Assembly (NCBI GenBank): GCA_964418925.1
Contig: CAYQNY010000001.1
Location: 1 to 51,612 of the forward strand
Direction of reading: 5' to 3'
Length of the DNA: 51,612 nucleotides
Source of the DNA: an uncultured Verrucomicrobiota bacterium
GTDB lineage: Bacteria > Verrucomicrobiota > Kiritimatiellia > JAAZAB01
Each line of letters opens with the position of its first letter. Within the stretch, counting starts at the first letter, position 1. The notes under the pieces are model-generated. The model searched no databases. It saw only the letters and a program-made list of their open reading frames with translations, and had not been told where the DNA came from. Both the position numbers and the translations under genes were made by a program. Below, one piece after another: positions 13,626-36,960 of the stretch.

Positions 13626-13661
13626 GCGTTGAGTATGCAGTCAGTTACCCGTGAGCACATA

Positions 13662-14726: not shown

Positions 14727-14815
14727 GTAATTGGCAGTGGGTACTCTCTTGCCGCCGAACGTCGCAAATCAGCGGCGCGGTATTCCGCGTACGCTGGATT
14801 TGTCTGGTTGGGGAT

Positions 14816-15517: not shown

Positions 15518-15863
15518 ATCGCTTCACTCCTTTCAAATCCCCAACAGTATTAATAGGATAAACTTAAGGCAACGGGCGATGGCACGTTCGCTTTTTTAGA
15601 GCCTATCCGAAAGGATCATCGTGTCCAATCTTTTATTCGCCTTTGTTAGAATACTCCGTGGCTCTTGTCGTGCCGAAGCCTTGCGTAGGCGGATGACACG
15701 GGGGGGCCGGTGTTACCAGGCTATGCCGCGTCAAGATGGCGAGCCGACCACGGCGACTTACCTGTGCGAAGCGCTACGGCGTAGCCTGGAGTCCAGCGAA
15801 GCAAGACGCAGCCGTCCAGCGCGGCGCCTGGTTAGATACAATCCATTCGTTCAGCACAACATA

Positions 15864-16487: not shown

Positions 16488-16665
16488 TTCTTGCCCTCCT
16501 TATTATATTTAATGGATAGTGTCAATTTAGATTAAGGGTTTCCGGCGCTGAGACAGCGGATGAGGAAACACAAGTCCCTTCGTTTGCCTCTTTGCCGCAT
16601 CAAAAGCTATTTGTAATGTCCAGACGTGATCCCGATCTTCTGTGTTTTTAATGGAAGAGAGAACG

Positions 16666-17094
16666 TCAGCCTTGAACCGCTTCGGATGCCGCGCCGCGCG
16701 AGGTATGCGCAGTCACGTTCGAAGGCATTGTTGGCTTTTCTCCATCTTCTAGTTCAAGACTTGCCTCCCAGCCATCGTACTTTCCGTCGAACTCGGATGC
16801 CAGGTCCATGCAGAACTGGCTAATGCCGTCGAGGAGGCCTTCGTCGGGAACGTGGGGGCAATAAAGGAGGCAAAGCCACAGGGAATCGTCGGAATCCTTC
16901 AGGGGCGGCGAGACCTCGGGCTTAAGCCCGGTGGATGCTGCACGACGACTCGCCCGTTGCGCCGAGTCCTCATTGGGGAAGTACAGCCAGAAGGAAACCT
17001 CGTGCTTCCGGTTCACATCCGAACCGAACCTTTGGAGTTGCTCCAGAATAAACTCTCCAGAGTACGGATTGCTTTCTTGTATATCCTTGTTCAT
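16666..17094 (-). CDS. RraB-like (regulator of ribonuclease activity B family) domain protein
   Basis: 142 aa. HEVSFWLYFPNEDSAQRA... and the C-terminal GKYDGWEA match the pattern I recall for the RraB domain. Confidence 0.55.
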   Translation of the reverse strand: MNKDIQESNPYSGEFILEQLQRFGSDVNRKHEVSFWLYFPNEDSAQRASRRAASTGLKPEVSPPLKDSDDSLWLCLLYCPHVPDEGLLDGISQFCMDLASEFDGKYDGWEASLELEDGEKPTMPSNVTAHTSRGAASEAVQG

Positions 17095-17122
17095 TCAATA
17101 AATCATATATTAGGTCCGAGTC

Positions 17123-18427
17123 TTAGTGGTTAGTGTTTGATTGCCCAATGTTAGCGCCGGCAAGGTTGGCCACGACGTTTTTCAATCCTGCGACCACCAG
17201 TGTGAACCGGTCATAGTTAAGTTTCTCCGGGGTGTCGTCCGGCGTGTGATACCAGCGGTACCGGAACAGCGCCGTATCCGTCACCATGACGGCCGGATAG
17301 CCCTCCCGCCAGAATGCCCAGTGGTCTGACCAGCTGATGCCCGTGATCCATGCCGGCAGGGCCGCGGCTTCCGAGGGACACAAAGCCGTCTGGCGAAAGC
17401 TTCTCACCACGGTTCGAACTAATGAGCGCGAACGGATGTTACCGATGAATGCCACAAAATTGCCGGTAGTCGGGTAAAACAGGCTGAAGAGTCGAAGCGG
17501 ATAGTGCTGGCTTTCTTTTTCATCGGAATAATATCCCAGCGTTTCCAGGCTGAGCATGGCGATGATCTGTTCATTGCGCGCCCGGCATTGCCGGGCATAT
17601 ACCAGGCTCCCCATGTTATGGGTCCAGAAAAACGGCGGCTCTTCATTGACAAAGGCCACGAAACGGAGCGTCCGCTCAGGTTGGGAGCCGGCCAACGCGC
17701 GCGCCAGCGCCAGCATTGCGGCCACGCCGCTGGCGTTGTCATTGGCGCCGGGGACTTGCTCCACCGAGTCATAATGAGCGCCGATCAGAACAATATCATC
17801 GGGATGGAGGGTTCCACGGAGTTCGACTTCCAGATTGTAACAGGGGCGGCCTTTCAGCCAGTCCACTTCATAACCTTGGCGCCGGACCTGGTAACCCGCT
17901 TTAGACAACGAGCCTTCGATATAGTCGGCCGCCGCACAGAGCGCGTTGTATCGGGAAATGACATTGCGCTCGCCGATTGTTCCAGCCAGCGTATAAACAT
18001 CCGCTTTCAGCGTCTCGCCGAGCAGGCGCTGGTCGGCCGTCAGCGGCAACATCGGCTCAGCTCTATGCATATCCGGCATGCGCATCATGATACCACCGAT
18101 CAAGACCAGTACAATGGGGAAGCATCCCAGGAAACAGACGGCGATGCCTGCCAGGATATCTTTCATCGCCGCCGTGTGCCGGCGGAGCCGCGCCAGGTAC
18201 AGTATCGCCCGCGCAATGGCCAGGAGGGATAGGACCCCCCAGGCCGTGCCGAAAGCCAACGCCATGCATGATAAAACGACCCGGAGATTACCGACCGGAC
18301 CCGTCGCTCGAACCGGCAGTACAACCAGCAGGACCGAGGTGATGATGAAAATGCCGAAGGTGATAGCCAGCGTTATGGCAACCCGGCGCATGGACATCGC
18401 TCGCTTGGACAGCGGATAAAGGTCCAC
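17123..18427 (-). CDS. M28-family aminopeptidase with a polytopic N-terminal membrane anchor
   Basis: 434 aa. Several N-terminal transmembrane helices are followed by GAHYDSV...GANDNASGVAAMLALARAL, the M28 zinc-ligand blocks. The start codon is ambiguous (Met1, Met11 or Met13). Confidence 0.85.
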   Translation of the reverse strand: MDLYPLSKRAMSMRRVAITLAITFGIFIITSVLLVVLPVRATGPVGNLRVVLSCMALAFGTAWGVLSLLAIARAILYLARLRRHTAAMKDILAGIAVCFLGCFPIVLVLIGGIMMRMPDMHRAEPMLPLTADQRLLGETLKADVYTLAGTIGERNVISRYNALCAAADYIEGSLSKAGYQVRRQGYEVDWLKGRPCYNLEVELRGTLHPDDIVLIGAHYDSVEQVPGANDNASGVAAMLALARALAGSQPERTLRFVAFVNEEPPFFWTHNMGSLVYARQCRARNEQIIAMLSLETLGYYSDEKESQHYPLRLFSLFYPTTGNFVAFIGNIRSRSLVRTVVRSFRQTALCPSEAAALPAWITGISWSDHWAFWREGYPAVMVTDTALFRYRWYHTPDDTPEKLNYDRFTLVVAGLKNVVANLAGANIGQSNTNH

Positions 18428-18711
18428 GGATCAATTCCTTTCAGACATTTGTTCGCTAACGTTTCAATCGGCTCTTTTGTAGATGGGTAAGCAACATTAA
18501 CAACCCTGAATCCCCTCAGTGAAAGCTGCTTTTCCACCTTCCGCATCGACCATTTTGTTCTGCCCATCCCATGCAGCAGTATAACATAGTCTCCTTGGCC
18601 GATCGTGTCTTGATTATCAGCCTTTGGCGCTATATCAGAAATCACTATGCCAAATGGAATGAATGCAACGATGATTAGCGCAAGCTGCATTTTAACAGAA
18701 TCAGGTTTCAT
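18373..18711 (-). pseudogene. N-terminal relic of an alpha/beta hydrolase (truncated)
   Basis: 112-aa ORF: a signal-like N-terminus, then DYVILLHGMGRTKWSMRKVEKQLSLRGFRVVNVAYPS, which is the beta3/oxyanion HG region. The ORF ends before any GxSxG nucleophile elbow and overlaps the M28 gene start by 55 nt. Confidence 0.45.
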
Positions 18712-18732
18712 TTAGAACTTGGGAACCGTTGC

Positions 18733-19404
18733 TTACCGATGATAAGGCGGTTGAGACGCGGACGATATCTGCTCCCGGACAAATTCACGGATCGGTTTAT
18801 TGCCCACATACATTGCTTCCAGGACGGCATTGCCGGAGCGGACTCGAACCATAACATAAGGATTCTGTAGAAGCTGATTAAACCGTTCGCGAATGAATTG
18901 ATCTCTAGCCTGCCAATCCTTGTCCTTCCCAAGGTGTTTTTGTGCTTCGGCGCTGATCCGAGCGCGTTGATCCCGGAAAAACGCCTCGATGGCCGGCGCA
19001 TCTTTTTCATTCATATAATACCGATCAAAGGGCAGATTCAGGTGAACTGTATTTTTGTTCACCCGCCTTACACGTGCCGTGATATAGGATTCCGTTTTGG
19101 GCCGCTCCCGCGTGATATGGTTCAACTGAGCGAATCCGTTATCACCCTGCCGAATAACAACCCACACCTTATCATTGCGTCCAAAGCTCATACCATCGGG
19201 CAAGGGAACGGTGTTGGATTCAACGCGCACCGCCACATAGCGCCCACGAAACGGATCCGCCGGATCGTATAGCGCAATTCGAAACCGAAAGGGAACACCG
19301 GTTTTGAGCGTCTGTTCATGGGTGATGATCATTGCTGCCACCACGCCGACCTGCGCCAGCACCATAAGCGCAAAGAAACCATATATCCATCTGCGTCGAG
19401 TCAT
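18733..19404 (-). CDS. GDYXXLXY-domain protein
   Basis: 223 aa with an N-terminal transmembrane helix. PFRFRIALYDPADPFRGRYVAVRV matches the DP.D.FRGDY..L.Y signature region. Its ATG overlaps the stop of the upstream gene (ATGA at 19401-19404). Confidence 0.7.
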   Translation of the reverse strand: MTRRRWIYGFFALMVLAQVGVVAAMIITHEQTLKTGVPFRFRIALYDPADPFRGRYVAVRVESNTVPLPDGMSFGRNDKVWVVIRQGDNGFAQLNHITRERPKTESYITARVRRVNKNTVHLNLPFDRYYMNEKDAPAIEAFFRDQRARISAEAQKHLGKDKDWQARDQFIRERFNQLLQNPYVMVRVRSGNAVLEAMYVGNKPIREFVREQISSASQPPYHR

Positions 19405-23076: not shown

Positions 23077-23105
23077 TTGACAAAATGGAAAAAAAAAGGC
23101 ATATT
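23077..23105 (+). promoter_or_regulatory. candidate promoter with an A9 tract in the spacer
   Basis: TTGACA (23077-23082), a 17-nt spacer containing nine consecutive A (23089-23097), then CATATT (23100-23105). It lies 43 nt upstream of the ATG at 23148. Confidence 0.3.
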
Positions 23106-23147
23106 TCATTAAACGCAATACCTGAAGAAAGAAAGGATTGGTCATTA

Positions 23148-24053
23148 ATGAAACCAACATTAGTTGTTATGGCCGCGGGTGTAGGCAGTCGTTATGGTGG
23201 TTTGAAGCAGATTGATCCGGTGGGGCCGTCAGGCGAGATTATGCTCGATTATTCCGTGTTTGATGCCATTCGCGCCGGATTTGGCAAGGTAGTGTTTATT
23301 ATCCGGCATGATATTGAGCAGGATTTTAAAGCCGTGATCGGTTCCCATTTCGTTGATCATGTGCAGGTCGAGTACGTGTTCCAGGAATTAACCGCTCTGC
23401 CCTCCGGCTTTACCGTGCCGGCGGACCGCCAAAAGCCATGGGGCACCGGTCACGCTGTTCTCCAGAGCCGGGCCATGGTTCAGGAACCGTTTGCCGTCAT
23501 CAATGCGGATGATTTTTACGGACAACGATCCTACGCCGTTCTGGCCGATTATCTGCGGAACACAGCGCCGGATGGTAATGCCTATGCCATGGTGGGGTTC
23601 AAACTGGTGAACACGCTGTCGGATCACGGCACGGTCACTCGCGGCATTTGTGAAACCGATGCGGCCCGGAATCTGATCAGCGTTGCGGAGCGGTTCAAGA
23701 TCGAAAAAACCGCCACGGGCTCCCGTTTTGAGAATGAAACCGGCCAGTGGGTGGATTGCCGGGGTGATGAAATCGCGTCCATGAACATGTTCGGATTTAC
23801 ACCCACAATGTTCACGTGGTTGGAAGAACAATTTCCGCTGTTCCTGCAAGGGGCGATGTCCAAGCCCAAGGCGGAGTTTCTGCTCCCGGCCATCGTCAAC
23901 ACGCTGATTCAGGAGCGCCGGGTCACGATGACCGTTCTGCAAACGCCGGAACCATGGTTTGGCGTCACCTACAAGGAAGACAAAACATTTGTCAGCGCCG
24001 GCATTCGGAAGCAGATTACCGCGGGCGTTTATCCCGAGCGGCTCTGGACTTAA
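23148..24053 (+). CDS. sugar-phosphate nucleotidyltransferase family protein
   Basis: N-terminal VVMAAGVGSRYGGLKQIDPVG (the GxGxR nucleotide-binding loop) and PWGTGHAV. The ATG at 23148 follows an AAAGGA ribosome-binding site. The ORF-track start at 23085 is less likely. Confidence 0.8.
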   Translation: MKPTLVVMAAGVGSRYGGLKQIDPVGPSGEIMLDYSVFDAIRAGFGKVVFIIRHDIEQDFKAVIGSHFVDHVQVEYVFQELTALPSGFTVPADRQKPWGTGHAVLQSRAMVQEPFAVINADDFYGQRSYAVLADYLRNTAPDGNAYAMVGFKLVNTLSDHGTVTRGICETDAARNLISVAERFKIEKTATGSRFENETGQWVDCRGDEIASMNMFGFTPTMFTWLEEQFPLFLQGAMSKPKAEFLLPAIVNTLIQERRVTMTVLQTPEPWFGVTYKEDKTFVSAGIRKQITAGVYPERLWT

Positions 24054-24082
24054 CGCGGCCATGCCGCGTTAAGAATTTAATT

Positions 24083-25165
24083 ATGTTTACCGGTCATGGA
24101 GGAACAGGAACCACGGAGGCCAAAACGCTGGGTTGGCCGGTTCTGGATGTGTCGGCCAGTATTGCGCCGTTTCCGGCGCCGGAAGCCGCCCTGTGTGCCT
24201 ATCATGAAGCGGCGGCGGACCTGGGACATTATCCTCAAATCGAAGGGTATGCCCTTTGCCAGGCCCTGGCCGCGCGCCTGGGACTGAATCCGGAAAATGT
24301 GCTCGTCGGCAGCGGGGCCACGGAATTTATTTACCTGATTCCCCGCGCCCTGCGGCCCGGTCGCGTGCTGGGTTTTGTTCCCGTCTATGGGGATTATGCT
24401 GATGCCGCGCGGCTGGCGGCATGTTCCTGGGTGTCTTTACCGACCATATGGGAACAGAGCTTTACACGCGACCTGGCCGGCCTGTCGGACATGGTGCGGC
24501 CGAACGACCTGGTTTTTCTCTGCAACCCCAATAATCCCACGGGCCATATGCTCGCGCCCGGCGCCATTCACGCTATGTGCTCCCGTTGTCCGCAGGTAAC
24601 CGTGGTCGTGGATGAAGCTTACGTGGAGTTTATCGGGCCCGGCGCCTCATGTCTGGATGTGGGCCTGCCGCCCAATCTGCTGGTACTGCGCAGTCCGACA
24701 AAATTTTACGCGTTGCCCGGCGTTCGACTGGGCTATTGTCTTGGCCATCGCGATTTGATAGCAGCATTGCTGGATGCCAAGGAACCGTGGACAGCCAGCG
24801 TCCCGGCGCTGGCCGTGGGACTCGCCCTGCTGAATTGTGCCGAGTACGATGCGCGGGTCCGGGACACTCTCGCCCATGAAAAATCCGCGTTGGAATCCTT
24901 GTTGACAGCCATTCCCGGGTTATCCGTTTGTTCCGGCGCGGCCAATTTCCTGTTGTGCCGGATCCGGGCCGCGGCGCCGACAGCGGCGGATTTGCGCGCC
25001 GCCTGCCTGAAGCAGGGTCTGCTTATCCGGGATGCGTCTAATTTTGAGGGCCTTGACAGTCATTATTTCCGTGTTGCCGTCCGGTTAGGGGCCGAGAATA
25101 ACCGTCTGGCTCAGATCATCCGGGAAGTCTTCAGAGTTCTTCATGCCGCTGAAACGGCACCATGA
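24083..25165 (+). CDS. cobD: PLP-dependent L-threonine-O-3-phosphate decarboxylase (aminotransferase class I/II fold)
   Basis: It begins MFTGHGG... (the HGG motif of the CobD type), then CNPNNPTG and a PLP-lysine block SPTKFYALPGVRLGY. It is adjacent to cbiB. The ORF-track start at 23816 overlaps the previous gene. Confidence 0.7.
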   Translation: MFTGHGGTGTTEAKTLGWPVLDVSASIAPFPAPEAALCAYHEAAADLGHYPQIEGYALCQALAARLGLNPENVLVGSGATEFIYLIPRALRPGRVLGFVPVYGDYADAARLAACSWVSLPTIWEQSFTRDLAGLSDMVRPNDLVFLCNPNNPTGHMLAPGAIHAMCSRCPQVTVVVDEAYVEFIGPGASCLDVGLPPNLLVLRSPTKFYALPGVRLGYCLGHRDLIAALLDAKEPWTASVPALAVGLALLNCAEYDARVRDTLAHEKSALESLLTAIPGLSVCSGAANFLLCRIRAAAPTAADLRAACLKQGLLIRDASNFEGLDSHYFRVAVRLGAENNRLAQIIREVFRVLHAAETAP

Positions 25166-26416: not shown

Positions 26417-27877
26417 ATGCGGTTGATGAAGATCATGAAATATCTTATCACTGGGATGGGATTATGGGGGCTAGCGTTTTGCGCGGGTGCGCTGGCGGGA
26501 GCGGCCGACGAGGAACTGGAGGCGTTGGTCGCGGAAGCCTTGGCGCAGAATCCGCAGGTGGCGCTGGCGAAATACCAGGTGGATGGGGCGCTCGCGCGCC
26601 GGGACGAACTGCGGGGGTTCTTTGATCCCCAGCTGGCGCTGTCTCTGGAACAGACGGATTCGGTCCTGGGCTATAACCAAAGCTCGTTGAGCGCCGGAGT
26701 GGATACGGCGGTGCTTCCCGGCGCGTATATCGGCGCCAGCCTGGAGGAGAATTATTTTAACCACCTGAAGGGCAGTTACGAATACCCGGATGTCCAAAGC
26801 GACTATGATCATCTGCTGCAAAGTATGGCCGGGCTGCGGATGGGCGTGCCGCTCCTGCGCGATCGTGGCTTTCGCCAGTGGCAGTTGTCCGATCAACAGG
26901 CGTTACGGAACTACAGTGCGGCCTGCAATCGTCTCTTGGAAGTGACGCAATCCATCCGTCACAATGTCGAACTCCGTTACATCGGGATTCTGGAATCGCT
27001 GGCATTATGGTCCGTGGCCCGGTCGGCCACGGAGCGTGTTCAGAAACTCCTGACGGAAGCCGAAGAACTCGTGAAACTCTGTACAGTGCCGGAATATCAA
27101 CTCTTTGCGGCGCGGTCCGAGGTGGCCTTGCGCCAGGAAGAGGAAACATTCGCCCGGCAGGTTTATGAAAACCGTCTTTCCCGTCTGGCCGAACTGCTGG
27201 GACAATCGGATCAGAAGCTGCAAGTGACCACGATGCCCGATGGGTTTACCCAGTGGGCGGAAACCGTGGATCTCCAGCCAACCTATTCGAAAGATCAGGC
27301 CCGGAAAGCGCGCGGTGATTACCGGCGCATCCTTGATCAAATCGGCGCCACCGAATTGGAAAAGGCGCGCAACATGGACAATCTTCGGTCGGATCTGTCA
27401 CTGCATATGGAAGTGGATTTACAGGGGGAGGACCCGGACCGGTTCATTGCCACCCAGCATTTTTTGAGTGATCATGGGCTGGGCGGCATGATCGGCCTGA
27501 CCTGGAGCCGGCCCTGGGGTTATCGGGCGGAGCATGCCCGTGTCCGCGCCCTGGATGCCGGCCTGTCGGAGCGGCGAGAATTGCTCCGGCAGATCGACCT
27601 GCGCATCCGGACGGAACTTGAGGTTGCGCACCGCGATTTCCGGCTGGCGCAGAAACGCTTTCGCCTGGTGACCAGGGCGGTATTCTCGGCCCGACAGGCG
27701 CTGGAAGCCGAGGACGAGCGTTTCCGGCTGGGTGAAGGACGTAGTCGGAACGTGCTGGACGCTCAAAAAGACTTGACGGCCGCCCTGAAACGGCGAACAG
27801 TATTGTCGGCTGAGTTGTTAAAAACATATTTTAATTTTCTCTTTGCATGCGGGTATAGCATTCAGCCGTCGCAGTGA
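26417..27877 (+). CDS. TolC-family outer-membrane efflux protein
   Basis: 486 aa with a signal peptide (LWGLAFCAGALAGAA). Two repeated coiled-coil halves carry typical OEP-family sequence (NPQVALAKYQVDGA..., ...RNVLDAQKDLTAA). Confidence 0.8.
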   Translation: MRLMKIMKYLITGMGLWGLAFCAGALAGAADEELEALVAEALAQNPQVALAKYQVDGALARRDELRGFFDPQLALSLEQTDSVLGYNQSSLSAGVDTAVLPGAYIGASLEENYFNHLKGSYEYPDVQSDYDHLLQSMAGLRMGVPLLRDRGFRQWQLSDQQALRNYSAACNRLLEVTQSIRHNVELRYIGILESLALWSVARSATERVQKLLTEAEELVKLCTVPEYQLFAARSEVALRQEEETFARQVYENRLSRLAELLGQSDQKLQVTTMPDGFTQWAETVDLQPTYSKDQARKARGDYRRILDQIGATELEKARNMDNLRSDLSLHMEVDLQGEDPDRFIATQHFLSDHGLGGMIGLTWSRPWGYRAEHARVRALDAGLSERRELLRQIDLRIRTELEVAHRDFRLAQKRFRLVTRAVFSARQALEAEDERFRLGEGRSRNVLDAQKDLTAALKRRTVLSAELLKTYFNFLFACGYSIQPSQ

Positions 27878-27995
27878 ATCCCGCCCGGCGGGGAATAGCT
27901 GGCGCGGCGTGTCATTTCGTCCGGTGACAGTAAGGCGGTATTTATTGAGTTTAACGGTTGGTTTCGACCAAGCGCCGCGTTAGGAGGAGTAGACT

Positions 27996-28820
27996 ATGGA
28001 CTGGACAATGCATCGGTTAAAGGAAATCTTTACGGGGCGGGAAGCCGTGAATGGGGAGAATCAGTCGTCGCCTCTGGCAGATACGGTCTTGCCGGATCAA
28101 CAGCGGGACGAGCTGGAACGCAACATTCTGCTCCTGGAAGACGAGTATGGGCTCAAGGAAAAGAAGCTCTACCGGCAGGCGGAAAAAGAGGTTCAGGACT
28201 CGGCGGAAGACTCGCTGAAACGCCTGCATATTATTCAGATGGGTCTCTGCCCGCGTTGCGGTGAATACCTGAGCAGGCATCTATTCACCAAGATTTGCGT
28301 GACCTGTGGCTGGAATCACTACGAAGTGCCCCGCCAAGGGCCCGTGCGCATTCACCTCCGGGACAAACCGACGCCGATCGAAGGGGAGCGCTGTTACGCC
28401 ATTGCCGCCGGTGACGTGTTTGTCGTGAAGAACGATGTGGTTATTGCCAGAATCTCCCAGGCATCCGTGAGCTGGATCGAATACAGCTGGACGAAGGAGG
28501 AGATTGACCAGCGTTATAAACAGGTGGTGGACCGCCTGAAAATCATGTGCAGCTGGTGCAACGGCCCGGCCGATCCCGAAAAAGAAGGTTTCAGTCTGGT
28601 GCAAATTGCCTTTGGATCCGGCCAGGACCGCTACGTATTTTGTTCCGAACAGTGTTATGAGGCGTTCCGGAAAATGTACCCGTCAAGAGTGCATCGGAAT
28701 TGTTACGAGCACAACTGCGCCGACTGCAATCTCTGCACCAAGCGCTATGACGATGAAACCGACGGCATTCGCCTGATCGCCAAGGATTTCCTGAAAAATA
28801 AGAACCTGAAGAAGCCGTAA
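27996..28820 (+). CDS. cytoplasmic Cys-rich protein with zinc-ribbon and TRASH-like motifs (uncharacterised)
   Basis: 274 aa with a strong AGGAGG ribosome-binding site and no signal peptide or transmembrane helix. An N-terminal coiled-coil is followed by CPRC-x12-CVTC. Further on come CSWC-x27-FCSEQCYEAF (a CxxC...CxxxC, TRASH-like spacing) and a terminal C-x5-C-x2-C-x2-C cluster. Confidence 0.65.
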   Translation: MDWTMHRLKEIFTGREAVNGENQSSPLADTVLPDQQRDELERNILLLEDEYGLKEKKLYRQAEKEVQDSAEDSLKRLHIIQMGLCPRCGEYLSRHLFTKICVTCGWNHYEVPRQGPVRIHLRDKPTPIEGERCYAIAAGDVFVVKNDVVIARISQASVSWIEYSWTKEEIDQRYKQVVDRLKIMCSWCNGPADPEKEGFSLVQIAFGSGQDRYVFCSEQCYEAFRKMYPSRVHRNCYEHNCADCNLCTKRYDDETDGIRLIAKDFLKNKNLKKP

Positions 28821-28847
28821 TGGAGCCGAAGTTGGCGGCCGGACGGC

Positions 28848-29981
28848 ATGTTCGTTCCGATGCCATCGTTCCGAAGCGTCAGAGCGAGGGGTCAGAGCGA
28901 ACAGCATGCCATACGGACCTGCCGGCTTACGGATCATGCCATGGGAGATGTGCGAACGACGCGTGATGGAGTCCTGCCGTTGACTTCGAAGGAACGTCGG
29001 CTGCAACGCCGGCGCCTGCTGCTGCTGATCGTGATTGGCGCGGTGCTGGTGATCAGCGCCGGTTTTGTCATTCCCGTTAATCAGTATATCATGGCCAGTG
29101 GCTATGTAACCACCGAGCGTTATGCGGAAGTCCGTTCTCCGGCCATTGGCACTGTCGCCAAAATCCTCGCGCAGTCGGGAATGCGCATGCAGGAAGGCGA
29201 CGTGCTTGTTCAGCTTGATAGCACGGAAGCGCAGGCCATCCTTGAGGAAACCATCAGCCAGGTGCAGAAAGCCGAGGCGGAAATCTCCCGGCGCGCCGCT
29301 GAAATCACCGAACGCAAGCGACGGCTGGCCGAAGACATCATCGTGGCCAAACTTCGCCTGCAGAATGCCGTCAGCCGCCTGGTCCGCACGCGGGAACTGA
29401 TGGCCAAGGGTCTGGTGGCGGGCAGTATCCTGGAGGATGACCAGCTGAAGGAAAAACTGGCTCGTGCCGAGGTGCAGTCGCTTACGAATACCGATATCAG
29501 TGTGTTCGACAAGGAGCTGATGGTGCTCCGCCATGAACTGCAGGCCCGCCGCGAGATGGTTGACCACGCTGAAACTGCCATCCGGGCCAGGGAAATCCGC
29601 GCGCCTATTTCCGGACAGGTCCTGCGTTACGAGTTTGTGGTCGGAGAGCTGGTGCGGCCGGATACGGTGCTGATGGAAATATTCGGCGGCGATCGGCAGA
29701 TTCTGAAATTGCGCGTGTCAGAGCGCCATGCCGCCCGCGTGGCAGTCGGCGCCCGTTACCGGGCCCGGCTGGCGACCTATCGAGGCTTGAGAAGCATCTG
29801 GTTTACCGGTAAAATCCAGTACCTGCGCAATGTCATTCAGTCGGAGGGACAGACCACCTACCGGGTGGCGTACTGCAGTTTTGATCCGAAGGGACGCACC
29901 GTTTCTCCGGGCACTACCGCGGAAGCCAAGGTCTATTGTGGTAAAACCTGTTTCTGGTTCTTTCTCTTTGGGGTGAATTAG
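28848..29981 (+). CDS. HlyD-family membrane fusion (periplasmic adaptor) protein
   Basis: A single transmembrane helix (LLLLIVIGAVLVISAGF) is followed by a lipoyl-like motif (SPAIGTVAKILAQSGMRMQEGDVLVQLD), a long coiled coil, and a beta-barrel ending IRAPISGQV. The start is uncertain (28848, 28860 or 28941). Confidence 0.8.
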   Translation: MFVPMPSFRSVRARGQSEQHAIRTCRLTDHAMGDVRTTRDGVLPLTSKERRLQRRRLLLLIVIGAVLVISAGFVIPVNQYIMASGYVTTERYAEVRSPAIGTVAKILAQSGMRMQEGDVLVQLDSTEAQAILEETISQVQKAEAEISRRAAEITERKRRLAEDIIVAKLRLQNAVSRLVRTRELMAKGLVAGSILEDDQLKEKLARAEVQSLTNTDISVFDKELMVLRHELQARREMVDHAETAIRAREIRAPISGQVLRYEFVVGELVRPDTVLMEIFGGDRQILKLRVSERHAARVAVGARYRARLATYRGLRSIWFTGKIQYLRNVIQSEGQTTYRVAYCSFDPKGRTVSPGTTAEAKVYCGKTCFWFFLFGVN

Positions 29982-30006
29982 CGCAGGTTATTCCCTTGGA
30001 CTGACC

Positions 30007-31779
30007 ATGATCGGCACGCGCACATCACAGCTAAAAAAAGTCATTCAATTCCTCGCCTCCTCCCGCTGGCGGTTGTTGGGTCTCCTGCTTTTGACCGCGG
30101 TATTGTCGGTGCTGACGATGGTTCCGCCGCTCCTGATGCGGGCGTTCATTGACCGTGTGATTACCCGGGGAGAGCATTCGCTCTTTTTACCGCTGGGCAT
30201 CTGCATGGTAATGATTCCTCTCCTGGTAGCCGTGTCCAGCTACCTGCAGACCCAGGGCATTGCCTATGTCGGCCAGCGCTTTGTGTTTGATCTCCGCTGC
30301 GCCCTGTATCGGCATATGCTGAACATGTCCCTCCGGTTTTTCGGCAAGCGCAGTACGGGCATGCTGGTTCATCGTTTGATGGGCGATACCGGCATGGTTG
30401 CTCAAGCGCTGTCTGCCCAGACGATCGGCATTGTGTCGGATCTGGTGTGCGCCATGTTTGCCATCACCGCCACGGTGATATTAAACTGGCGCCTGTCCCT
30501 GCTCGTCATACTGATCGTGGCGGCCTTCCTGCTCAACTATCATTTTAATATCGATAAACTCCGTAAAGCGTCCCAAAGCTATTGGCGGTCGTTTGACCGG
30601 CTGTCGGGTGGTGTCCAGAACCGGCTGACGGCCAGCATGGTGATCAAGTCCTTCGGTAAGGAAGACCAGGAGCAAAAGGTATTTCGGGAACAGTCCGAGA
30701 CCAGCGTACTCCTGTTTCAGGATGCCAATCTGATCGGAACCGCGTTTTCACAGAACACGGTCATTATTCAGAACCTTGGGCGGGCCCTCCTGTATTTCCT
30801 GGGATGTGGAATGGTCATTCGCGGTGATATGTCCTATGGAGATGTTGTGGCCTTCACGACCTTTGCCATGCAGTTGCTGGGGCCGGCCGTCCGTTTTTCG
30901 GAGCTGGCGCCGCAGATTCAAAACGTGCGCGTTGCCATTGAGCGTATCCTGGAAATTTACAGCGAACAGCCGGAAATTCTTGAAAAGCGTGGGGCGGTGG
31001 AAATCGGCCGCTCGCGGGGACGGATTGACTTTAACCACGTGACGTTCGGCTACGAACCGGGGCGCTTGGCCGTACGGGATTTTGATCTGCACGTTCAGCC
31101 CGGTGAAACCGTGGCGCTGGTCGGGCCGACGGGGTGCGGAAAAAGCACGCTCCTGTTATTGCTCCTGCGCTTTTTTGACGTCAGTGCCGGCAGTCTGAAA
31201 CTGGACGACCGGGATATTCGTACCCTCCGGCTGAAGTCGCTGCGGGCCCAGTTTGGCATCGTTCTTCAGGAACCGCTGTTGTTTCACGTCAGCATGGCCG
31301 AAAATATCCAGTATTCGCGGGTGAACGCGAGCCAGGCCGAAATCGAAGCGGCCGCAAAAATCGCGGAAATCCATAATTTTATCCAGACTCTGCCAGATCG
31401 TTATCAGACCGTGCTGGGAAGCGAGGGCCTGCAGTTGTCCGTGGGCCAGAAACAGCGGCTGACCATTGCCCGTGCCATCCTGGCCGATCCGGCGGTGCTC
31501 ATCATGGATGAGGCCACCAGTTCGTTGGACAGCGAGTCCGAGCATGCCATTCAACTGGCCATGCGCCGGGTTCTGCGGAATCGGACGGCGTTTATTGTGG
31601 CGCATCGTTTGAGCACGATCCGTGATGCCCATCGCATTGTAGTCATGCGGGATGGCGGCATTATGGAGATCGGCAGTCACGACGAACTGATGACCGTTCC
31701 CGGCGGGCAGTATCGCCAACTGTATGAACAGCATGTTCATAAGGGGATTATCGAAGATGATAAGGATCTAAAAGATTAA
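30007..31779 (+). CDS. ABC exporter half-transporter (TMD-NBD), consensus NBD
   Basis: 590 aa with a six-helix transmembrane domain. Walker A GPTGCGKST, signature LSVGQKQR, Walker B LIMDEATSSLD, H-loop VAHRLST. Confidence 0.9.
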   Translation: MIGTRTSQLKKVIQFLASSRWRLLGLLLLTAVLSVLTMVPPLLMRAFIDRVITRGEHSLFLPLGICMVMIPLLVAVSSYLQTQGIAYVGQRFVFDLRCALYRHMLNMSLRFFGKRSTGMLVHRLMGDTGMVAQALSAQTIGIVSDLVCAMFAITATVILNWRLSLLVILIVAAFLLNYHFNIDKLRKASQSYWRSFDRLSGGVQNRLTASMVIKSFGKEDQEQKVFREQSETSVLLFQDANLIGTAFSQNTVIIQNLGRALLYFLGCGMVIRGDMSYGDVVAFTTFAMQLLGPAVRFSELAPQIQNVRVAIERILEIYSEQPEILEKRGAVEIGRSRGRIDFNHVTFGYEPGRLAVRDFDLHVQPGETVALVGPTGCGKSTLLLLLLRFFDVSAGSLKLDDRDIRTLRLKSLRAQFGIVLQEPLLFHVSMAENIQYSRVNASQAEIEAAAKIAEIHNFIQTLPDRYQTVLGSEGLQLSVGQKQRLTIARAILADPAVLIMDEATSSLDSESEHAIQLAMRRVLRNRTAFIVAHRLSTIRDAHRIVVMRDGGIMEIGSHDELMTVPGGQYRQLYEQHVHKGIIEDDKDLKD

Positions 31780-31793
31780 GTGGTCAACTTGCC

Positions 31794-33755
31794 ATGCATA
31801 TGCATCATCGTAATTATGCCTTTCGTCCGCCCTACATGGAACGGGATCGTACGGCGGGGAAGCTGAACCTGTTTGCCCGCTTTCTGCGGACCTATGTGGG
31901 CCCCTATAAATGGTCCGTGGCGTTGTGCGCTTTGCTGATGTCCCTGGACTGGTGCGGCTCGTTTTTTTTGATTGCCTATTACAGCCGGGTGGTGGTGGAT
32001 TCAATCCTGGTTGTTCAGCCGGCGCTGGAGTCACCCGCGTCAATGCCGCGGGGACGATATACAACGATGCCCCGGATCAGCAGAGGGGACTTAAAGTCAT
32101 CCGCGTCATCGCGGCCCCGGGAAAGTATGGGCCGGAGAATTGATCGGGGGATTCAGGTGTCGCCCCGGCCGCCGGATGCCAACCGGCGGTTATGGCTTAT
32201 ATTTCTCCTATATGTAGCCACGCTGGTGACAGGCAATATTTTAACCCGCGTGGCGTGGCGGCGGCGCATCATGATTGGCCAGCGCATTACCGCCAGGCTC
32301 CGCGATGATGTGCATGCAAAGGTGCTGAAATTGTCACTGGCCTACCATACCGCTCATACGCCGGGGCGTCTTCAGTCCCGTATTCTTTGGGATGTCAACG
32401 TTGTTCAGGAACAGCTGATGAATATTATTATCGGATCCATCAGTCAGGTTTTTATGATCCTGATCGGATTTATCCTGTTGTTTATCATCGAGTGGCGCAT
32501 GGCGCTGATCGTGCTGGTATGCCTCCCGTTCTATGTGTTGATATATCGGGTGGCCCGACCGTATCTTCGCCGGGTGCACCGGGAGATGAGCCATACCAAT
32601 GCCTGCCTTTACGGGCTGGTGTCGCAGAAACTGGATGCAATCAAAATGATCCAGGCCTATGGCCGGGAAGGGCAGGAATACCTGACGTTTCACCGGCTGG
32701 CGGCCTGCTTTTTCAGGGATGCCCGGTTTCAAATCCGGCTGGGGGCGGCCAGCGGGCAACTGGCGAAATTGTTGAGTGCCCTGGGCACCAGCGGCGCGAT
32801 TTTCCTTTACGGAGTGTATCAGGTACTCCAGGGGGGCATGTCGCTGGGTCAGATGCTCTTTGCCTACGGAACGGCGGCCACGCTTTTCGCGCCGGTACTC
32901 AGCCTGAGTTCCCTCAACGTGATGATGTCCAACCTGCTGGTGTCTCTGAATCGCCTGACGAATATCATGGATGAACCCATGCGCATCAAGGAGGCTCCGA
33001 ATGCTGTGGAGTTTCCATCACCTTTGCGATCGGGCCTCACCGTGAATCATCTTCAGTTCCAATTCGATGCCGAAAGTGAGCCGGTTTTACAGGAGGTGTC
33101 CATCAATATTCCCGCCGGCTCCAGTTTCTGTATCATGGGCGCCAGCGGCAGCGGCAAGAGTACGTTGTTAAGCCTGCTGGCCCGTTTGTATGACGCCGAC
33201 AGCGGGGAAATCCTGATTGATGGCGTGCCCCTGAAAACAATTAGGATTGCCTCCCTCCGCCGACACATTGCTCTGGTGCCTCAGGAGGCGCAAATTCTCA
33301 GCGGAACGGTGCGTGACAATATCTGCTATGGGTATTCAAATGCCCATGCGGAGGATATTATGGCGGCGGCCCGCGCGGCGGAATTTCATGATTTTGTCAT
33401 GACCCTGCCGGTGCAGTATGAAACCCTGCTGGGGGAAAAGGGCACCAGCCTCTCCGGCGGCCAGAGACAGCGTCTGGCGCTGGCCCGCGCGCTGTTGACC
33501 CGGCCGGAAGTGCTTCTTCTCGACGACTGCACCTCGGCGTTGGATGCGGAAACCGAACGGCGCATTCAGCAGACATTGACGTCGGCGCTGGCCGGCAAAA
33601 CCGCTGTCATTGTGTCACAGCGCATATCAATGGCTCAGCGCTGTCACCGGATTTGTGTGCTGGATAACGGCATTATCTCGGAGGAAGGAACCCACGAAGA
33701 ACTCCTGACCCAGGGCGGGTTTTATGCCCGTCTCCATGCCCAACAGACCGAATAG
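31794..33755 (+). CDS. ABC exporter half-transporter (TMD-NBD), degenerate catalytic residues
   Basis: 653 aa. Walker A GASGSGKST, signature LSGGQRQR, Walker B LLLDDCTSALD (the catalytic Glu position is Asp), H-loop position VSQRIS (Gln instead of His). There is an extra hydrophilic segment of about 58 aa between TM1 and TM2. Confidence 0.9.
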   Translation: MHMHHRNYAFRPPYMERDRTAGKLNLFARFLRTYVGPYKWSVALCALLMSLDWCGSFFLIAYYSRVVVDSILVVQPALESPASMPRGRYTTMPRISRGDLKSSASSRPRESMGRRIDRGIQVSPRPPDANRRLWLIFLLYVATLVTGNILTRVAWRRRIMIGQRITARLRDDVHAKVLKLSLAYHTAHTPGRLQSRILWDVNVVQEQLMNIIIGSISQVFMILIGFILLFIIEWRMALIVLVCLPFYVLIYRVARPYLRRVHREMSHTNACLYGLVSQKLDAIKMIQAYGREGQEYLTFHRLAACFFRDARFQIRLGAASGQLAKLLSALGTSGAIFLYGVYQVLQGGMSLGQMLFAYGTAATLFAPVLSLSSLNVMMSNLLVSLNRLTNIMDEPMRIKEAPNAVEFPSPLRSGLTVNHLQFQFDAESEPVLQEVSINIPAGSSFCIMGASGSGKSTLLSLLARLYDADSGEILIDGVPLKTIRIASLRRHIALVPQEAQILSGTVRDNICYGYSNAHAEDIMAAARAAEFHDFVMTLPVQYETLLGEKGTSLSGGQRQRLALARALLTRPEVLLLDDCTSALDAETERRIQQTLTSALAGKTAVIVSQRISMAQRCHRICVLDNGIISEEGTHEELLTQGGFYARLHAQQTE

Positions 33756-34338: not shown

Positions 34339-34545
34339 TCATTTCACCGGTTTGGGAATTGGAATCTGGGTCCGGCATGATGGACAGAGAATCTTTTTCC
34401 CCTGCCACTCTATTTTCGAAGCCAGTTTCTGCTGACAAGCCGGGCAATAAAACTTGAATATTTCCGCCGCTTTCGTGATGGGCGCGAGCGGCCGGGCGGT
34501 CTTCGGCTGAAGGGAGATTGATTTCGAATCAGTTGGGGCAGGCAT
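34339..34545 (-). CDS. 68-aa zinc-ribbon protein
   Basis: CPACQQKL-x11-CPSCRTQIPIP (CPxC-x14-CPxC). It starts 3 nt after the stop of the FGE-like gene. Its ribbon is paralogous to the one in the 36325-36960 product. Confidence 0.5.
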   Translation of the reverse strand: MPAPTDSKSISLQPKTARPLAPITKAAEIFKFYCPACQQKLASKIEWQGKKILCPSCRTQIPIPKPVK

Positions 34546-34548
34546 CAG

Positions 34549-36225
34549 TTAAAGCCCCTTTTCATTCTTGGACCCTATCACCACCCGGAAACCGATATAG
34601 CTGTTTTTCCGGCTTTCCGGTTCACCGGTGCGGTTGGCCACTTTCAACGAATCCGCCGGTGAGACATTCCACGCACCGCCGCGGATAACCCGGTATTGCC
34701 GGGACGGATCATAAAGGTCGGCACACCATTCCCAGACATTTCCGCCCATACCGTAAAGCTCCCATTCATTCTGTCCGCTCTTTTCAACAGGACACGTAAC
34801 AGATGCGCCATCGTCATAGCCCTCGATGGGGCCGTAGTTTCCGTATTGCGGCGGCCATTGATTGCCCCAGGGATATGCGCGGGTCTGTCCGCAGGTGGCG
34901 GCAGTTTCCCATTCCGCCTCGGTCGGCAGGCGGAATCCGCGACCGGCTTCCAGATGCTCCGCCAGGCGTGTGTTTAGCCATTGGCAGAAGGCCATGGCGT
35001 CATCCCAGCTGACATTGACCACAGGCTGATCGGGGTCATCAAGCGACTGGTCCTTGAAGACGCCGCTGGTGTGACCCGGCTGGAATTCTCTGAACTGCTT
35101 GTTGGTCACTTCGTATTTACTCATCCAGATATTCAACGGCTTGACACGGATGCATTCCAGGGTCACGGCATCGGATAGATCGAATGTCCTGGTCTGGTCC
35201 AGGGCAGCAAATCCTTGGTCGGAAAAAGCATCCTTGCCGTAATCCTTCTCATATTGGATAAGCCGGGTGGATGCCGGATCGAATTTTTTGTCCTCGATCA
35301 GCTTCTGAATGAGGGTCTGATCGCCGGTTTTCTTTTCCTGCTTGGCGGCCTCGGTTTGTTCCTTGTTGTCCGTGGTCTGACGCGCCGGTTCGGCTTCCGG
35401 CGTAACTTTGGCGGCCGGCCCCTTTGGCGGAGCCTGTTTCCCGGCGTTGATATCAGTGACATCCGCCACCACGCGAAAGCCCAGGCTGGTAAACCGGTAA
35501 TCCGGAGTGTTGCTGCGGCGGCAAGTCAGTTTCAGGAAATACGGGTGGCAATCCGCCCACGAGGCGCCCTTGAATACCCGGGCCTTCGATTCGCCGTCGG
35601 TATCTTCGCACCATTCCCAGACGTTGCCGCCCACACCGAAAAGACGCCAGATGTTTTTCCCGCTTTGCGGCCCCGGACATGACACGCGAAAGCCGTCATT
35701 ATTATCAAGTTTCCGGGTGGGTTCCGGGTTTTCGCGGCCGAAATAATTCCAGGTGTTGGGCGGCGGCCAGTTGGTGCCCCAGGGATAATCCACCGGTTGC
35801 CCGCAGGCGGCATAGGTTTCCCATTCCGATTCCTTGGGCAGGCGAAAATGATAACGCTTGGCGCCGGCGACGCCATATTTTTTATTGAGCCACTGGCAGA
35901 ATGCCTGGGCATCCTTCCAGCTTACGTTCACGGCCGGCTGATCGTCCCGGTTCAAGCCCATCTGGTTATGCTGTCTGCTATAGTGTCCCGGCTTGAAGCG
36001 ACGGAATATTTTGTTGCTGACCTCGTATTTGCCGACGAACAAATCCATCGGCTCAATCCAAATAAAACGCATTTTGATTTTGTCACCCAGGTCAAGAATC
36101 AAGTCCCCCGTCTGATCCTTGCTGGTCTCCGTTGATTTCAGCCAATGACAGCCGGTGAGTGTAACAGCGGCTAGTGCCAGGACCAGGCCCATCGCACAGG
36201 CGGAATAACATTGTCCGTTTTTCAT
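34549..36225 (-). CDS. lipoprotein with two FGE-sulfatase (SUMF1/EgtB/PvdO-type) domains
   Basis: Start at ATG 36225 gives MKNGQCYSACAMGLVLALAAVTLTGC, which has a lipobox. Two copies follow the pattern ...PVVNVSW.DA.AFCQWLN...RLP.E.EWE.AA.CG...GGNVWEWC. They are separated by a K/E/P/A/T-rich linker of about 60 aa. Confidence 0.85.
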   Translation of the reverse strand: MKNGQCYSACAMGLVLALAAVTLTGCHWLKSTETSKDQTGDLILDLGDKIKMRFIWIEPMDLFVGKYEVSNKIFRRFKPGHYSRQHNQMGLNRDDQPAVNVSWKDAQAFCQWLNKKYGVAGAKRYHFRLPKESEWETYAACGQPVDYPWGTNWPPPNTWNYFGRENPEPTRKLDNNDGFRVSCPGPQSGKNIWRLFGVGGNVWEWCEDTDGESKARVFKGASWADCHPYFLKLTCRRSNTPDYRFTSLGFRVVADVTDINAGKQAPPKGPAAKVTPEAEPARQTTDNKEQTEAAKQEKKTGDQTLIQKLIEDKKFDPASTRLIQYEKDYGKDAFSDQGFAALDQTRTFDLSDAVTLECIRVKPLNIWMSKYEVTNKQFREFQPGHTSGVFKDQSLDDPDQPVVNVSWDDAMAFCQWLNTRLAEHLEAGRGFRLPTEAEWETAATCGQTRAYPWGNQWPPQYGNYGPIEGYDDGASVTCPVEKSGQNEWELYGMGGNVWEWCADLYDPSRQYRVIRGGAWNVSPADSLKVANRTGEPESRKNSYIGFRVVIGSKNEKGL

Positions 36226-36324
36226 ATAAGGGATTCTTAATAATGTTGGCCGATCATTCTTTATCCGCCAACGGATGCGGGGCAAAAGAACCCGGCATGA
36301 CCGGCACACAGGAACGGGAAGCGT

Positions 36325-36960
36325 TCAAACATCCTGAACCTGTACGCGCACGGTTGCGTTTTTCAGCGCTTCGGCCGTCATGTCTTCCGTGGCCGGCTTG
36401 ATTCCGATGGACAGCGTGCTCAGCAGCTTAGTCATGGCCGACTGGAACGATTCTACGTCATTCCGGATCAAGGGGATGATGGGAATGCTCTCCGGCAGCA
36501 TCAGCTGGGATTTCAAGTGATCGGCCTGTGAAAGAATGATGAACGGTTTCTTGCAGTTCGGGCACCGGCCGCGTTTGCTGATGTCCGTGTCGCGCAGCCA
36601 TAATTTCTGGCCGCAGGAGGGACAACTGATCTTAAAATCCACTTCCCCCTTGTCACGGAGTAGGAAAATGGCCATTGGCACGTTGAGTTCGTCGGGAAGA
36701 TGGCGGTAGATCATTTTAACCTTGTCCAGGGAGAGCACGTCCAGAAAGCGGGCGACAATCGCGATCGCATCCGCCTTGGCAATATGTTCCTCGAATGTTG
36801 GATCCTGGCCGGGATCGCCGGCGATGATGTCGAAGACGACCGGATGATCGCCGATAGTCAACTCGTTTTTCTGCTCCGATTCCAAAGGCTCGATAAATGC
36901 TTCCGCCAGTTCCTGGTAAATGGACAAGACTAAAGTATGAATGGATTTTGGTTCGCTCAT
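36325..36960 (-). CDS. hypothetical protein with a central zinc ribbon
   Basis: 211 aa. The motif CPSCGQKLWL-x10-CPNCKKPFIIL is paralogous to that of the 68-aa protein. The N-terminal ~115 aa loosely resemble a P-loop-less small-GTPase fold (FDIIAGDPGQD; ADAIAIVARFLD; VPMAIFLLRDKGE). Confidence 0.6.
   Translation of the reverse strand: MSEPKSIHTLVLSIYQELAEAFIEPLESEQKNELTIGDHPVVFDIIAGDPGQDPTFEEHIAKADAIAIVARFLDVLSLDKVKMIYRHLPDELNVPMAIFLLRDKGEVDFKISCPSCGQKLWLRDTDISKRGRCPNCKKPFIILSQADHLKSQLMLPESIPIIPLIRNDVESFQSAMTKLLSTLSIGIKPATEDMTAEALKNATVRVQVQDV

Follow-up and report, generated by a model that had tools for sequence, protein, structure and literature searches.

Why would an apparent export operon encode a small cysteine-rich protein between its outer-membrane channel and its periplasmic adaptor? 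This question is raised by a 51,612-nt stretch of DNA from an uncultured member of the Kiritimatiellia (contig CAYQNY010000001.1), which we will call the window. (Coordinates refer to the whole window unless another locus is named.) Five open reading frames (ORFs) at 26417-33755, all on the + strand, encode a TolC-family channel, a 274-aa Cys-rich protein, an EmrA/HlyD-type adaptor, and two half-transporters, ABC1 and ABC2, in that order. Each half-transporter combines a transmembrane domain with a nucleotide-binding domain (TMD-NBD). An earlier sequence-only reading of this DNA had described five co-directional, closely spaced genes, which agrees with the list of ORFs. The arrangement is not due to chance: the same order and strand are found in the genomes of dozens of species.

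Conservation of the operon

We surveyed one genome per species, for 185,579 species, and found a relative of the Cys-rich protein in 162 of them. We fetched 80 loci, and we counted linkage at those with sufficient flanking DNA. The organisms are labeled as Kiritimatiellia or Lentisphaeria, in various namings, save for a few generic or odd labels. A TolC gene lies directly upstream of the Cys-rich gene, on the same strand, at 61 of 67 genome loci; an adaptor gene lies directly downstream at 62 of 66; and the adaptor, ABC1, and ABC2 follow the Cys-rich gene in order at 38 of 46. Independent loci from metagenomes give a similar picture, with TolC upstream in 18/21, the adaptor downstream in 21/22, and the full set in 6/11. 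The full operon is also present in a cultured bacterium, Oligosphaera ethanolica DSM 24202 (locus L041). The sequence-only reading had made its case depend on whether homologs of the 274-aa protein are linked to transporter genes, and the census was positive: the linkage is strong.

Across these loci, the median identity to the window's protein is 53% for the Cys-rich protein, 57% for ABC1, 51% for ABC2, 48% for the adaptor, and 36% for TolC. Conservation of the Cys-rich protein matches that of the ABC subunits.

In fragmented operons, the Cys-rich gene is kept beside a pump gene. This is TolC in some loci and the adaptor in others, and the ABC pair may or may not accompany the adaptor. Six genome loci have the Cys-rich and adaptor genes without TolC, and five of these have both ABC genes (L007, L010, L024, L028, and L077). 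The Cys-adaptor pair stands alone in L117 and its relatives, including metagenome loci. At three genome loci, TolC-Cys-adaptor is followed by unrelated genes (this arrangement is listed for L014, L017, L018, and L120), and at four, only TolC-Cys is found (listed for L038, L039, L053, L061, and L168). A gene from the major facilitator superfamily (MFS) precedes TolC in just some of the Lentisphaeria loci.

Some of these loci have other features. In L017, a Tad/Flp pilus cluster (prepilin peptidase, TadE, TadG, RcpC, and secretin; 12420-19064) lies directly 3' of TolC-Cys-adaptor. In L009, which is from one metagenome-assembled genome, a 5.5-kb sugar-catabolism cluster on the opposite strand (3579-9143) separates the adaptor from ABC1. 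It encodes a class II aldolase, a PfkB kinase, and a Zn-dependent dehydrogenase, and it is either a real split of the operon or a misassembly. Loci of the Oligosphaeraceae/Victivallales type come in two forms: a longer operon (sulfotransferase, MFS, OEP, Cys, adaptor, ABC1, ABC2, and two unannotated ORFs of ~280 aa) and a locus with MFS-OEP-Cys only. (Coordinates for these loci are 2404-13520 in L170-L172, 5036-8810 in L168/L169, and 7118-8332 in L027.) Both forms are found in metagenome sample 3300060803, and they may be paralogous loci of one genome.

A divergent clade with rearranged genes

A second clade of Cys-rich proteins, of 236-258 aa, is ~35% identical to the window's protein. These proteins keep all 12 of the invariant cysteines that are described below and lack the C-terminal tail; one is labeled as Candidatus Latescibacteria. 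Their genes are arranged in several ways, with three gene orders among the loci that have an ABC pair. The Cys-rich gene is tail-to-tail with a pair of half-transporter genes, and 2-4 nt away from it, in L082, L083, L086, L089, and L161-L165. It is co-directional with such a pair, and before or after it, in L097, L122, and L142. In L101, L104, and L105, its neighbor is an OEP gene in head-to-head orientation. No transporter gene is in view in L081 (which has little flanking sequence), L092, L094, L098, L099, or L166.

Because the linkage survives independent rearrangements in two distant clades, there is strong evidence for a functional tie between the Cys-rich protein and the transport system. 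We give almost no credence to the idea that the Cys-rich gene is an unrelated passenger in the operon. A passenger would not be expected to stay linked across deeply divergent clades and at least five gene arrangements while the flanking genes are not conserved. (The genes that flank the module in the window, which encode CbiB, an aminotransferase, and a tetratricopeptide-repeat protein, are conserved in no other locus.) Also, identities of 33-67% argue against a sampling artefact of one recent lineage.

The two half-transporters are asymmetric

The NBD motifs of ABC1 are GPTGCGKST, LSVGQ, IMDEATSSLD, and AHR. Its Walker A is consensus, its Walker B has the catalytic Glu, and its H-loop has the His, while its signature (LSVGQ) is degenerate. 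The corresponding motifs of ABC2 are GASGSGKST, LSGGQ, LLDDCTSALD, and SQR. Here the signature is canonical, Asp replaces the catalytic Glu in Walker B, and Gln replaces the His of the H-loop. In ABC transporters, each ATP site is formed by the Walker motifs from one subunit and the signature from its partner, so the pair should have one consensus and one degenerate ATP site.

This asymmetry held nearly without exception across the 48-56 orthologs from related loci. ABC1 orthologs have an xS[VT]GQ-type signature along with DE and the His in at least 55 of 56 cases. ABC2 orthologs have LSGGQ in 48/48 and a Walker B with DD in 47/48, and the H-loop His is absent from the listed variants. ABC1 and ABC2 are ~30% identical to each other (judging from cross-hits), and their genes are always adjacent. 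From these motifs, we predict that ABC1 and ABC2 form an asymmetric heterodimeric pump in the style of TM287/288. The pairs of the divergent clade combine a subunit with DE and LSVGQ, FSAGE, or FSTGQ and a subunit with DD and LSGGQ; they show in part the asymmetry of the TM287/288 type.

Both proteins have the ABCB fold, with a six-helix ABC_membrane domain, and neither has a C39 domain or any other N-terminal domain in Pfam. The sequence-only reading had noticed that the two half-transporters differ, that one ATP site is degenerate, and that neither protein has a C39 peptidase domain; the motifs, the orthologs, and Pfam bear this out. Among proteins in PDB, the closest bacterial half-transporter to ABC1 is TM_0288 (316 bits), and the closest to ABC2 are Sav1866, MsbA, and TmrA. 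The nearest NCBIfam families are MsbA-like and HlyB-like, and the scores are far short of their cutoffs. We rejected an assignment as the lipid A flippase MsbA: TIGR02203 is the best-scoring family, with scores of 398.6 and 371.2 that are below its cutoff of 602.

ABC2 has two features that are conserved in its orthologs from the Planctomycetes-Verrucomicrobia-Chlamydiae (PVC) bacteria. One is the motif HHRNYxFRPP at the N-terminus. The other is a loop of 42-68 residues between the first and second transmembrane helices (TM1 and TM2), which is predicted to be periplasmic by the standard topology of the fold. The ABC2-like subunits of the divergent clade have neither, and their loci show no adaptor gene beside the Cys-rich gene. 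Because the loop and the motif are absent from that clade's ABC pairs, they may be linked to coupling to the adaptor in the PVC version.

The channel, the adaptor, and the layout of the operon

The coordinates of the genes and of the motifs in the Cys-rich protein are given in Table 1. From 5' to 3', the spacers between the five genes are 118, 27, 25, and 14 nt. The ribosome-binding site that the sequence-only reading had credited to the 274-aa gene is indeed there. Pfam profiles also recovered each of the expected parts (OEP, HlyD_3/HlyD_D23, ABC_membrane, and ABC_tran), as had been anticipated from the TolC-type channel and HlyD-type adaptor. All five proteins fall short of the cutoffs of the curated NCBIfam families for characterized systems, so the module does not match a known efflux system by this measure.

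Table 1. Positions of the operon's genes and of motifs within the Cys-rich protein
Feature	Position	Strand	Remarks
Gene 1, TolC/OEP-family channel	26417..27877	+	486 aa, hydrophobic signal-like N-terminus; Pfam OEP
AGGAGG ribosome-binding site of the Cys-rich gene	27982..27987	+	8 nt 5' of the ATG at 27996; read from the sequence
Gene 2, Cys-rich protein	27996..28820	+	274 aa; no Pfam match above threshold
Zinc-ribbon motif CPxC-x12-CxxC (C85, C88, C101, C104)	28248..28307	+	Invariant in alignments A1 and A2
YHS/TRASH/FCS-like finger CxWC-x27-FCSxxCxxxF (C185, C188, C216, C220)	28548..28655	+	Invariant Cys
C-terminal cluster HRNC-x4-C-x2-C-x2-C (H233, C236, C241, C244, C247)	28692..28736	+	Invariant in both clades
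Gene 3, EmrA/HlyD-type adaptor	28848..29981	+	377 aa; Pfam HlyD_3/HlyD_D23
Gene 4, ABC half-transporter 1 (ABC1, TMD-NBD)	30007..31779	+	590 aa; Pfam ABC_membrane + ABC_tran
Gene 5, ABC half-transporter 2 (ABC2, TMD-NBD)	31794..33755	+	653 aa; Pfam ABC_membrane + ABC_tran

The channel matches OEP in two stretches (E = 8.9e-21), and it is below the cutoffs of the NCBIfam families for TolC and NodT. Searching the sequences in PDB gave no relevant match to it, just one weak and unrelated hit (E = 0.0014); the channel appears to be too divergent for a relevant match. The adaptor matches HlyD_3, HlyD_D23, and Biotin_lipoyl. Its best NCBIfam families are RND_mfp (85.7 bits, cutoff 94.9) and then type_I_hlyD (78 bits, cutoff 208), and among solved structures, EmrA is the nearest in sequence (E = 5.8e-9). 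It has a short basic N-terminus, followed by the hydrophobic stretch LLLLIVIGAVLVISAGFVI, as in a protein with a single N-terminal transmembrane helix. The true start of the adaptor is probably the ATG at 28941, because the homologs align only from residue 32.

The Cys-rich family and its putative metal sites

We found 186 homologs of the Cys-rich protein among 5.8 billion proteins, and those that are listed have ~270 aa. The few with names are annotated as hypothetical proteins or are mislabeled as "ribosomal protein L32"; they are from Kiritimatiellia or Lentisphaeria, including O. ethanolica. An exhaustive profile search of 1.84 billion cluster representatives gave just 50 clusters for the family, with no remote homologs and no informative fusions. 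(We disregarded a 380-aa match as a fusion; its sequence suggests a chimera whose C-terminal domain is of the TonB type.) By these searches, the family appears to be small, compact, and unannotated. The window's protein does not reach the threshold of any family in Pfam or NCBIfam, and its sole Pfam match is to YHS, at 18.3 bits (cutoff 30.3). Comparison to the sequences in PDB gave chance-level matches to zinc ribbons only.

Alignments A1 and A2 contain 12 invariant cysteines, in three groups of four, which are enough for three Cys4 sites. The first group (C85-C104) resembles a zinc ribbon and has weak similarity to the zinc ribbons of L32/L37 and RpoM. The second is reminiscent of the YHS, TRASH, and zf-FCS fingers: residues 185-224 carry a CxxC ... 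FCSxxCxxxF motif that resembles theirs. Sub-threshold matches to YHS are found in 26 of 40 members of the family (best E = 9.1e-4), and a few members match zf-FCS and TRASH. In contrast to those families, all of these matches are below the cutoffs, 27 residues separate the two Cys pairs, and the protein is larger, with two further Cys4 groups and a barrel that has no significant match. The third group, near the C-terminus (C236, C241, C244, and C247), could be another metal site, for Zn or Fe-S; three members have weak matches to Fer4_21 there.

In the AlphaFold 2 model of the Cys-rich protein (mean pLDDT 71), a disordered, variable, and acidic N-terminus is followed by a long helix (residues 34-81), the zinc ribbon, and a confident small beta-barrel (residues 117-163). 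After the barrel come a helix, the YHS-like beta-hairpin with its helix, and the C-terminal cluster, which is modeled with low confidence. Low confidence is expected there if the fold depends on a cofactor. Foldseek searches with the full model and with a separate model of the C-terminal part gave no match with E below 0.03 and no functional clue. The barrel has some likeness to small barrels of the Sm/YgdR type, and the C-terminal part to ribosomal zinc proteins (E = 0.03-0.1), and these similarities are not significant.

On inspection, we saw no hydrophobic N-terminus and no transmembrane segment in the Cys-rich protein, which was not run through a dedicated signal-peptide predictor. Because it lacks a hydrophobic N-terminus, we infer that it is cytoplasmic, and because of its three invariant Cys4 groups, it probably binds metal.

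Metal binding raises the possibility that the Cys-rich protein works as a metallochaperone or cofactor carrier: it would pass a metal, or a species that contains one, to the ABC heterodimer for export, and the module would serve in the efflux or delivery of a metal or cofactor. The three invariant Cys4 groups, one of them YHS/TRASH-like, fit this idea, and YHS/TRASH domains have been linked to the trafficking and sensing of metals (PMC4626032). The low confidence of the model at the C-terminal CxxCxxC cluster would also fit, if the cluster needs its cofactor to fold. But the cysteines are spaced as in structural zinc ribbons and treble-clef fingers, and every match to YHS or TRASH is below threshold. 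Also, metal-resistance genes do not recur in the flanks of the 80 loci. Tripartite efflux of metals is normally based on pumps of the resistance-nodulation-division (RND) family. Overall, we think that a metallochaperone is quite unlikely.

Accessory component or local regulator?

The components of a tripartite ABC exporter (an OEP channel, a lipoyl adaptor with a membrane anchor, and an ABC pair) are co-located, and from the sequences of the proteins we infer that the channel, the adaptor, and the ABC pair assemble into one conduit. We propose that the five genes form an operon of housekeeping type, found only in the Kiritimatiellia/Lentisphaeria branch of the PVC bacteria, and that it encodes an envelope-spanning ABC exporter. 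The TolC-family channel would be in the outer membrane, the EmrA/HlyD-type adaptor would cross the periplasm from a single transmembrane helix, and the heterodimer of ABCB fold would be in the inner membrane; as in TM287/288 or TmrAB, one of its two ATP sites would be competent and the other degenerate. The Cys-rich protein, which would be soluble and cytoplasmic with three Cys4 metal sites, would be a dedicated fourth component of the pump. It would most likely dock on the cytoplasmic face, either on the NBDs and intracellular loops of ABC1 and ABC2 or on the short N-terminal tail of the adaptor, because a soluble cytoplasmic protein can reach just those parts of the machine that lie in the cytoplasm. 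As a subunit in that position, it would regulate the pump or handle the substrate, and it might be tuned by metal or redox.

We lean, if only slightly, toward a role for the Cys-rich protein as a dedicated accessory component of the tripartite exporter. A narrower version is tentative, and we would not bet on it: the Cys-rich protein could be a stoichiometric fourth subunit, soluble and on the cytoplasmic face, that gates or loads the asymmetric exporter in response to metal or redox via its Cys4 sites (Zn or Fe-S). As far as our literature searches show, no dedicated cytosolic subunit is known for an exporter of the ABCB fold that belongs to a tripartite, envelope-spanning system.

Several observations weigh against a pump component. 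First, some of the divergent loci (L092, L094, L099, and L166 among them) have no transporter gene in view. Second, mirror-tree correlations between the Cys-rich protein and each partner did not single out any partner (the values for ABC2 are noisy because of cross-hits). Third, the fold searches with the models of the Cys-rich protein gave no significant match that would indicate its function. Finally, a subunit of the pump explains the loci with MFS-TolC-Cys only, and those with the Cys-rich and OEP genes head-to-head, no better than a local regulator does.

Such a regulator could act on the pump genes transcriptionally or post-transcriptionally, and its zinc fingers could sense metal, redox, or an envelope signal. 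Local regulators are typically encoded next to whichever pump gene remains, as the Cys-rich gene is in the head-to-head pairs with OEP (L101, L104, and L105) and in the MFS-TolC-Cys loci, which have neither adaptor nor ABC genes. In the predicted structure, the zinc ribbons and the long N-terminal helix could support dimerization and the binding of nucleic acids. We nevertheless think that a regulator is unlikely, given that no recognized DNA-binding domain was found in Pfam scans of the window's protein and of family members, and that the protein is acidic (net charge ~-6 and pI ~5.9). The strong consensus ribosome-binding site inside the operon suggests expression above the level of a regulator. 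No inverted repeat was found 5' of the TolC gene or within the TolC-Cys spacer of the window. And the gene for a regulator would not typically lie tail-to-tail with the ABC pair, as the Cys-rich gene does in the divergent clade.

Terminator-like sites are not enriched in the window, and the scans gave no operator-like repeat; promoter-like matches are ~2x the mean for shuffled sequence and lie mostly within genes.

Comparison to known systems

The sequence-only reading did not recognize this combination of genes as described. Part of that view does not stand: systems with two ABC proteins, an HlyD-type adaptor, and TolC are already known. The dedicated zinc-finger partner is the new element. 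Our literature searches, which do not cover all journals, found no description of the Cys-rich family or of a zinc-finger or zinc-ribbon partner of an ABC exporter.

The first precedent is the secretion of MARTX toxins by Vibrio, which requires two different ABC proteins (RtxB and RtxE), one HlyD-type adaptor (RtxD), and TolC (PMC3034196). The window's module has the same parts. Unlike the MARTX system, it has no RTX/MARTX cargo, RtxH, or RtxC, and it scores far below the cutoffs of the type I families; nor does MARTX secretion have a counterpart of the Cys-rich partner. The second precedent is the export cluster for NHLP/Nif11 bacteriocins, with an HlyD-like protein (TIGR03794) and two non-identical ABC permease/ATPases, TIGR03796 and TIGR03797 (PMC2887384). 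Again, one HlyD-like protein is combined with two different ABC proteins, as in the window. However, the window's ABC proteins lack the C39 peptidase, and no precursor-peptide genes are conserved nearby. An assignment to NHLP/Nif11 fails on the scores, which are 330.8 for TIGR03796 (cutoff 853.3), 305.4 for TIGR03797 (cutoff 709.4), and 23.3 for TIGR03794 (cutoff 156.2).

Classical type I secretion was rejected on similar grounds. For HlyB (TIGR01846), the two ABC proteins score 381.7 and 335.2 (cutoff 725.55); for HlyD (TIGR01843), the adaptor scores 78.2 (cutoff 208.65); and for TolC (TIGR01844), the channel scores 26.8 (cutoff 225.15). Systems of the HasD/PrtD type lack an N-terminal domain as well, so the missing C39 domain is no argument against type I secretion.

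Asymmetric heterodimeric exporters of the TM287/288, TmrAB, and BmrCD class are described as stand-alone pumps of the inner membrane (reviewed in PMC8277102). Like ABC1 and ABC2, they are encoded by adjacent but different TMD-NBD genes, with Glu replaced by Asp, no H-loop His, and a degenerate signature in the partner. The window's pair differs in being encoded in an operon with an adaptor, a channel, and the Cys-rich protein, and ABC2 adds the long TM1-TM2 loop and the N-terminal motif. Conversely, EmrAB-TolC and MacAB-TolC share the architecture of a channel with a single-TM adaptor and differ in the inner-membrane pump, which in the window is an ABCB-fold heterodimer instead of an MFS protein and lacks the MacB/FtsX fold. 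We also considered a MacB-type (type VII) pump, which needs the four-helix permease of FtsX/MacB and a large periplasmic domain, and rejected it: both pump proteins carry ABC_membrane instead.

In PVC bacteria, HlyD- and OEP-linked modules with an extra cytoplasmic protein, SecA_DEAD, and no ABC genes have been reported (PMC4452313). Because those modules have no ABC genes, they are just an analogy to the one in the window.

Substrate and cargo

All-against-all clustering of the flanking ORFs found no conserved sixth gene or cargo gene within 10 kb in the 80 loci, and the large ORFs that we scanned in the window encode no RTX-like protein. This agrees with the sequence-only reading, which saw no obvious cargo (neither an RTX or Gly-rich protein nor a leader-peptide gene). 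An Rfam scan of the window found no RNA element, and so no riboswitch that might hint at the substrate.

Could the Cys-rich protein itself be the cargo of a type I secretion system? It is encoded within the operon, it is acidic, and there is no other conserved candidate. But its 12 invariant cysteines form Cys4 sites of an intracellular type, and it is as well conserved as the ABC subunits. It has no RTX or Gly-rich repeats, its C-terminal tail is absent from the divergent clade, and the adaptor is far below the cutoff for HlyD proteins of type I systems. We consider this role very unlikely.

More broadly, because the adaptor is EmrA-like, there is no conserved cargo, and the scores for type I families are below threshold, we disfavor classical secretion of the RTX type. 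Given that EmrA is the adaptor's closest relative among solved structures and that no cargo gene is conserved nearby, we favor a small molecule, a lipid or glycolipid, or a peptide encoded elsewhere as the probable substrate, rather than an RTX-type protein.

The clustering did turn up two flanking genes that recur in part of the loci: a GT9 heptosyltransferase (12 loci, all closely related) and an MFS gene (8 loci). The heptosyltransferase, which is of the type that acts on the core of lipopolysaccharide (LPS), is directly 5' of the module in L001 (7374-8411), L007 (1157-2254), L010 (7305-8336), and 9 further loci from Kiritimatiellia. This neighbor is a weak hint of a connection to the envelope or LPS; the best family scores of the pumps are MsbA-like.

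Other genes in the window

The other ORFs in the window that we scanned encode sulfatases, glycoside hydrolases (GH), and proteins with FGE-sulfatase domains. A sulfatase and GH116, GH106-like, and GH2 enzymes are found at 253-1644, 3924-6959, 7022-10162 (- strand), and 47160-49649. The contig looks like that of a degrader of sulfated polysaccharides of the Kiritimatiellia type, which agrees with the taxonomy of the closest homologs.

Two small proteins encoded 3' of the module on the - strand, at 34339-34545 (68 aa) and 36325-36960 (211 aa), share a zinc-ribbon motif (CPxCxQKL ... CPxC). They flank a 586-aa protein (34549-36309, - strand) with two FGE-sulfatase (SUMF1-like) domains. This arrangement of zinc ribbons and FGE, at 34339-36960, may be a recurring module.

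Cobalamin-biosynthesis genes (CbiB and the aminotransferase) lie 5' of the export module. As predicted, the aminotransferase ORF (23816-25165, with a GTG start) overlaps the preceding nucleotidyltransferase gene (23085-24053) by ~240 nt. Its Pfam match begins at residue 123, so the true start is probably near 24100-24180. In the divergent clade, two genes of the URO-D family and one for a thioredoxin-domain protein are 5' of the Cys-rich gene in L082 (5039-7841) and L161-L163. This theme of tetrapyrroles or corrinoids, with URO-D in the divergent clade and CbiB in the window, may be a coincidence.

Implications

Heterodimeric asymmetric exporters have been studied mainly as stand-alone drug pumps, and tripartite ABC systems mainly as homodimers; this operon joins both and brings in a conserved soluble partner that probably binds metal. 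It is a natural system for asking what use is made of a degenerate ATP site in a pump that must also drive an adaptor and a channel, and whether exporters of the ABCB fold have cytosolic regulatory subunits. Both questions are open to experiment in O. ethanolica DSM 24202, a cultured host with the full operon.

If the Cys-rich protein is a fourth subunit, then the operon would encode an export pathway that is specific to PVC bacteria, with a substrate that is possibly related to the envelope. The module is among the few strongly conserved, lineage-specific envelope systems of the Kiritimatiellia and Lentisphaeria. These bacteria are abundant degraders of polysaccharides in guts, sediments, and digesters, and the substrate of the pump may bear on the biology of their envelope.

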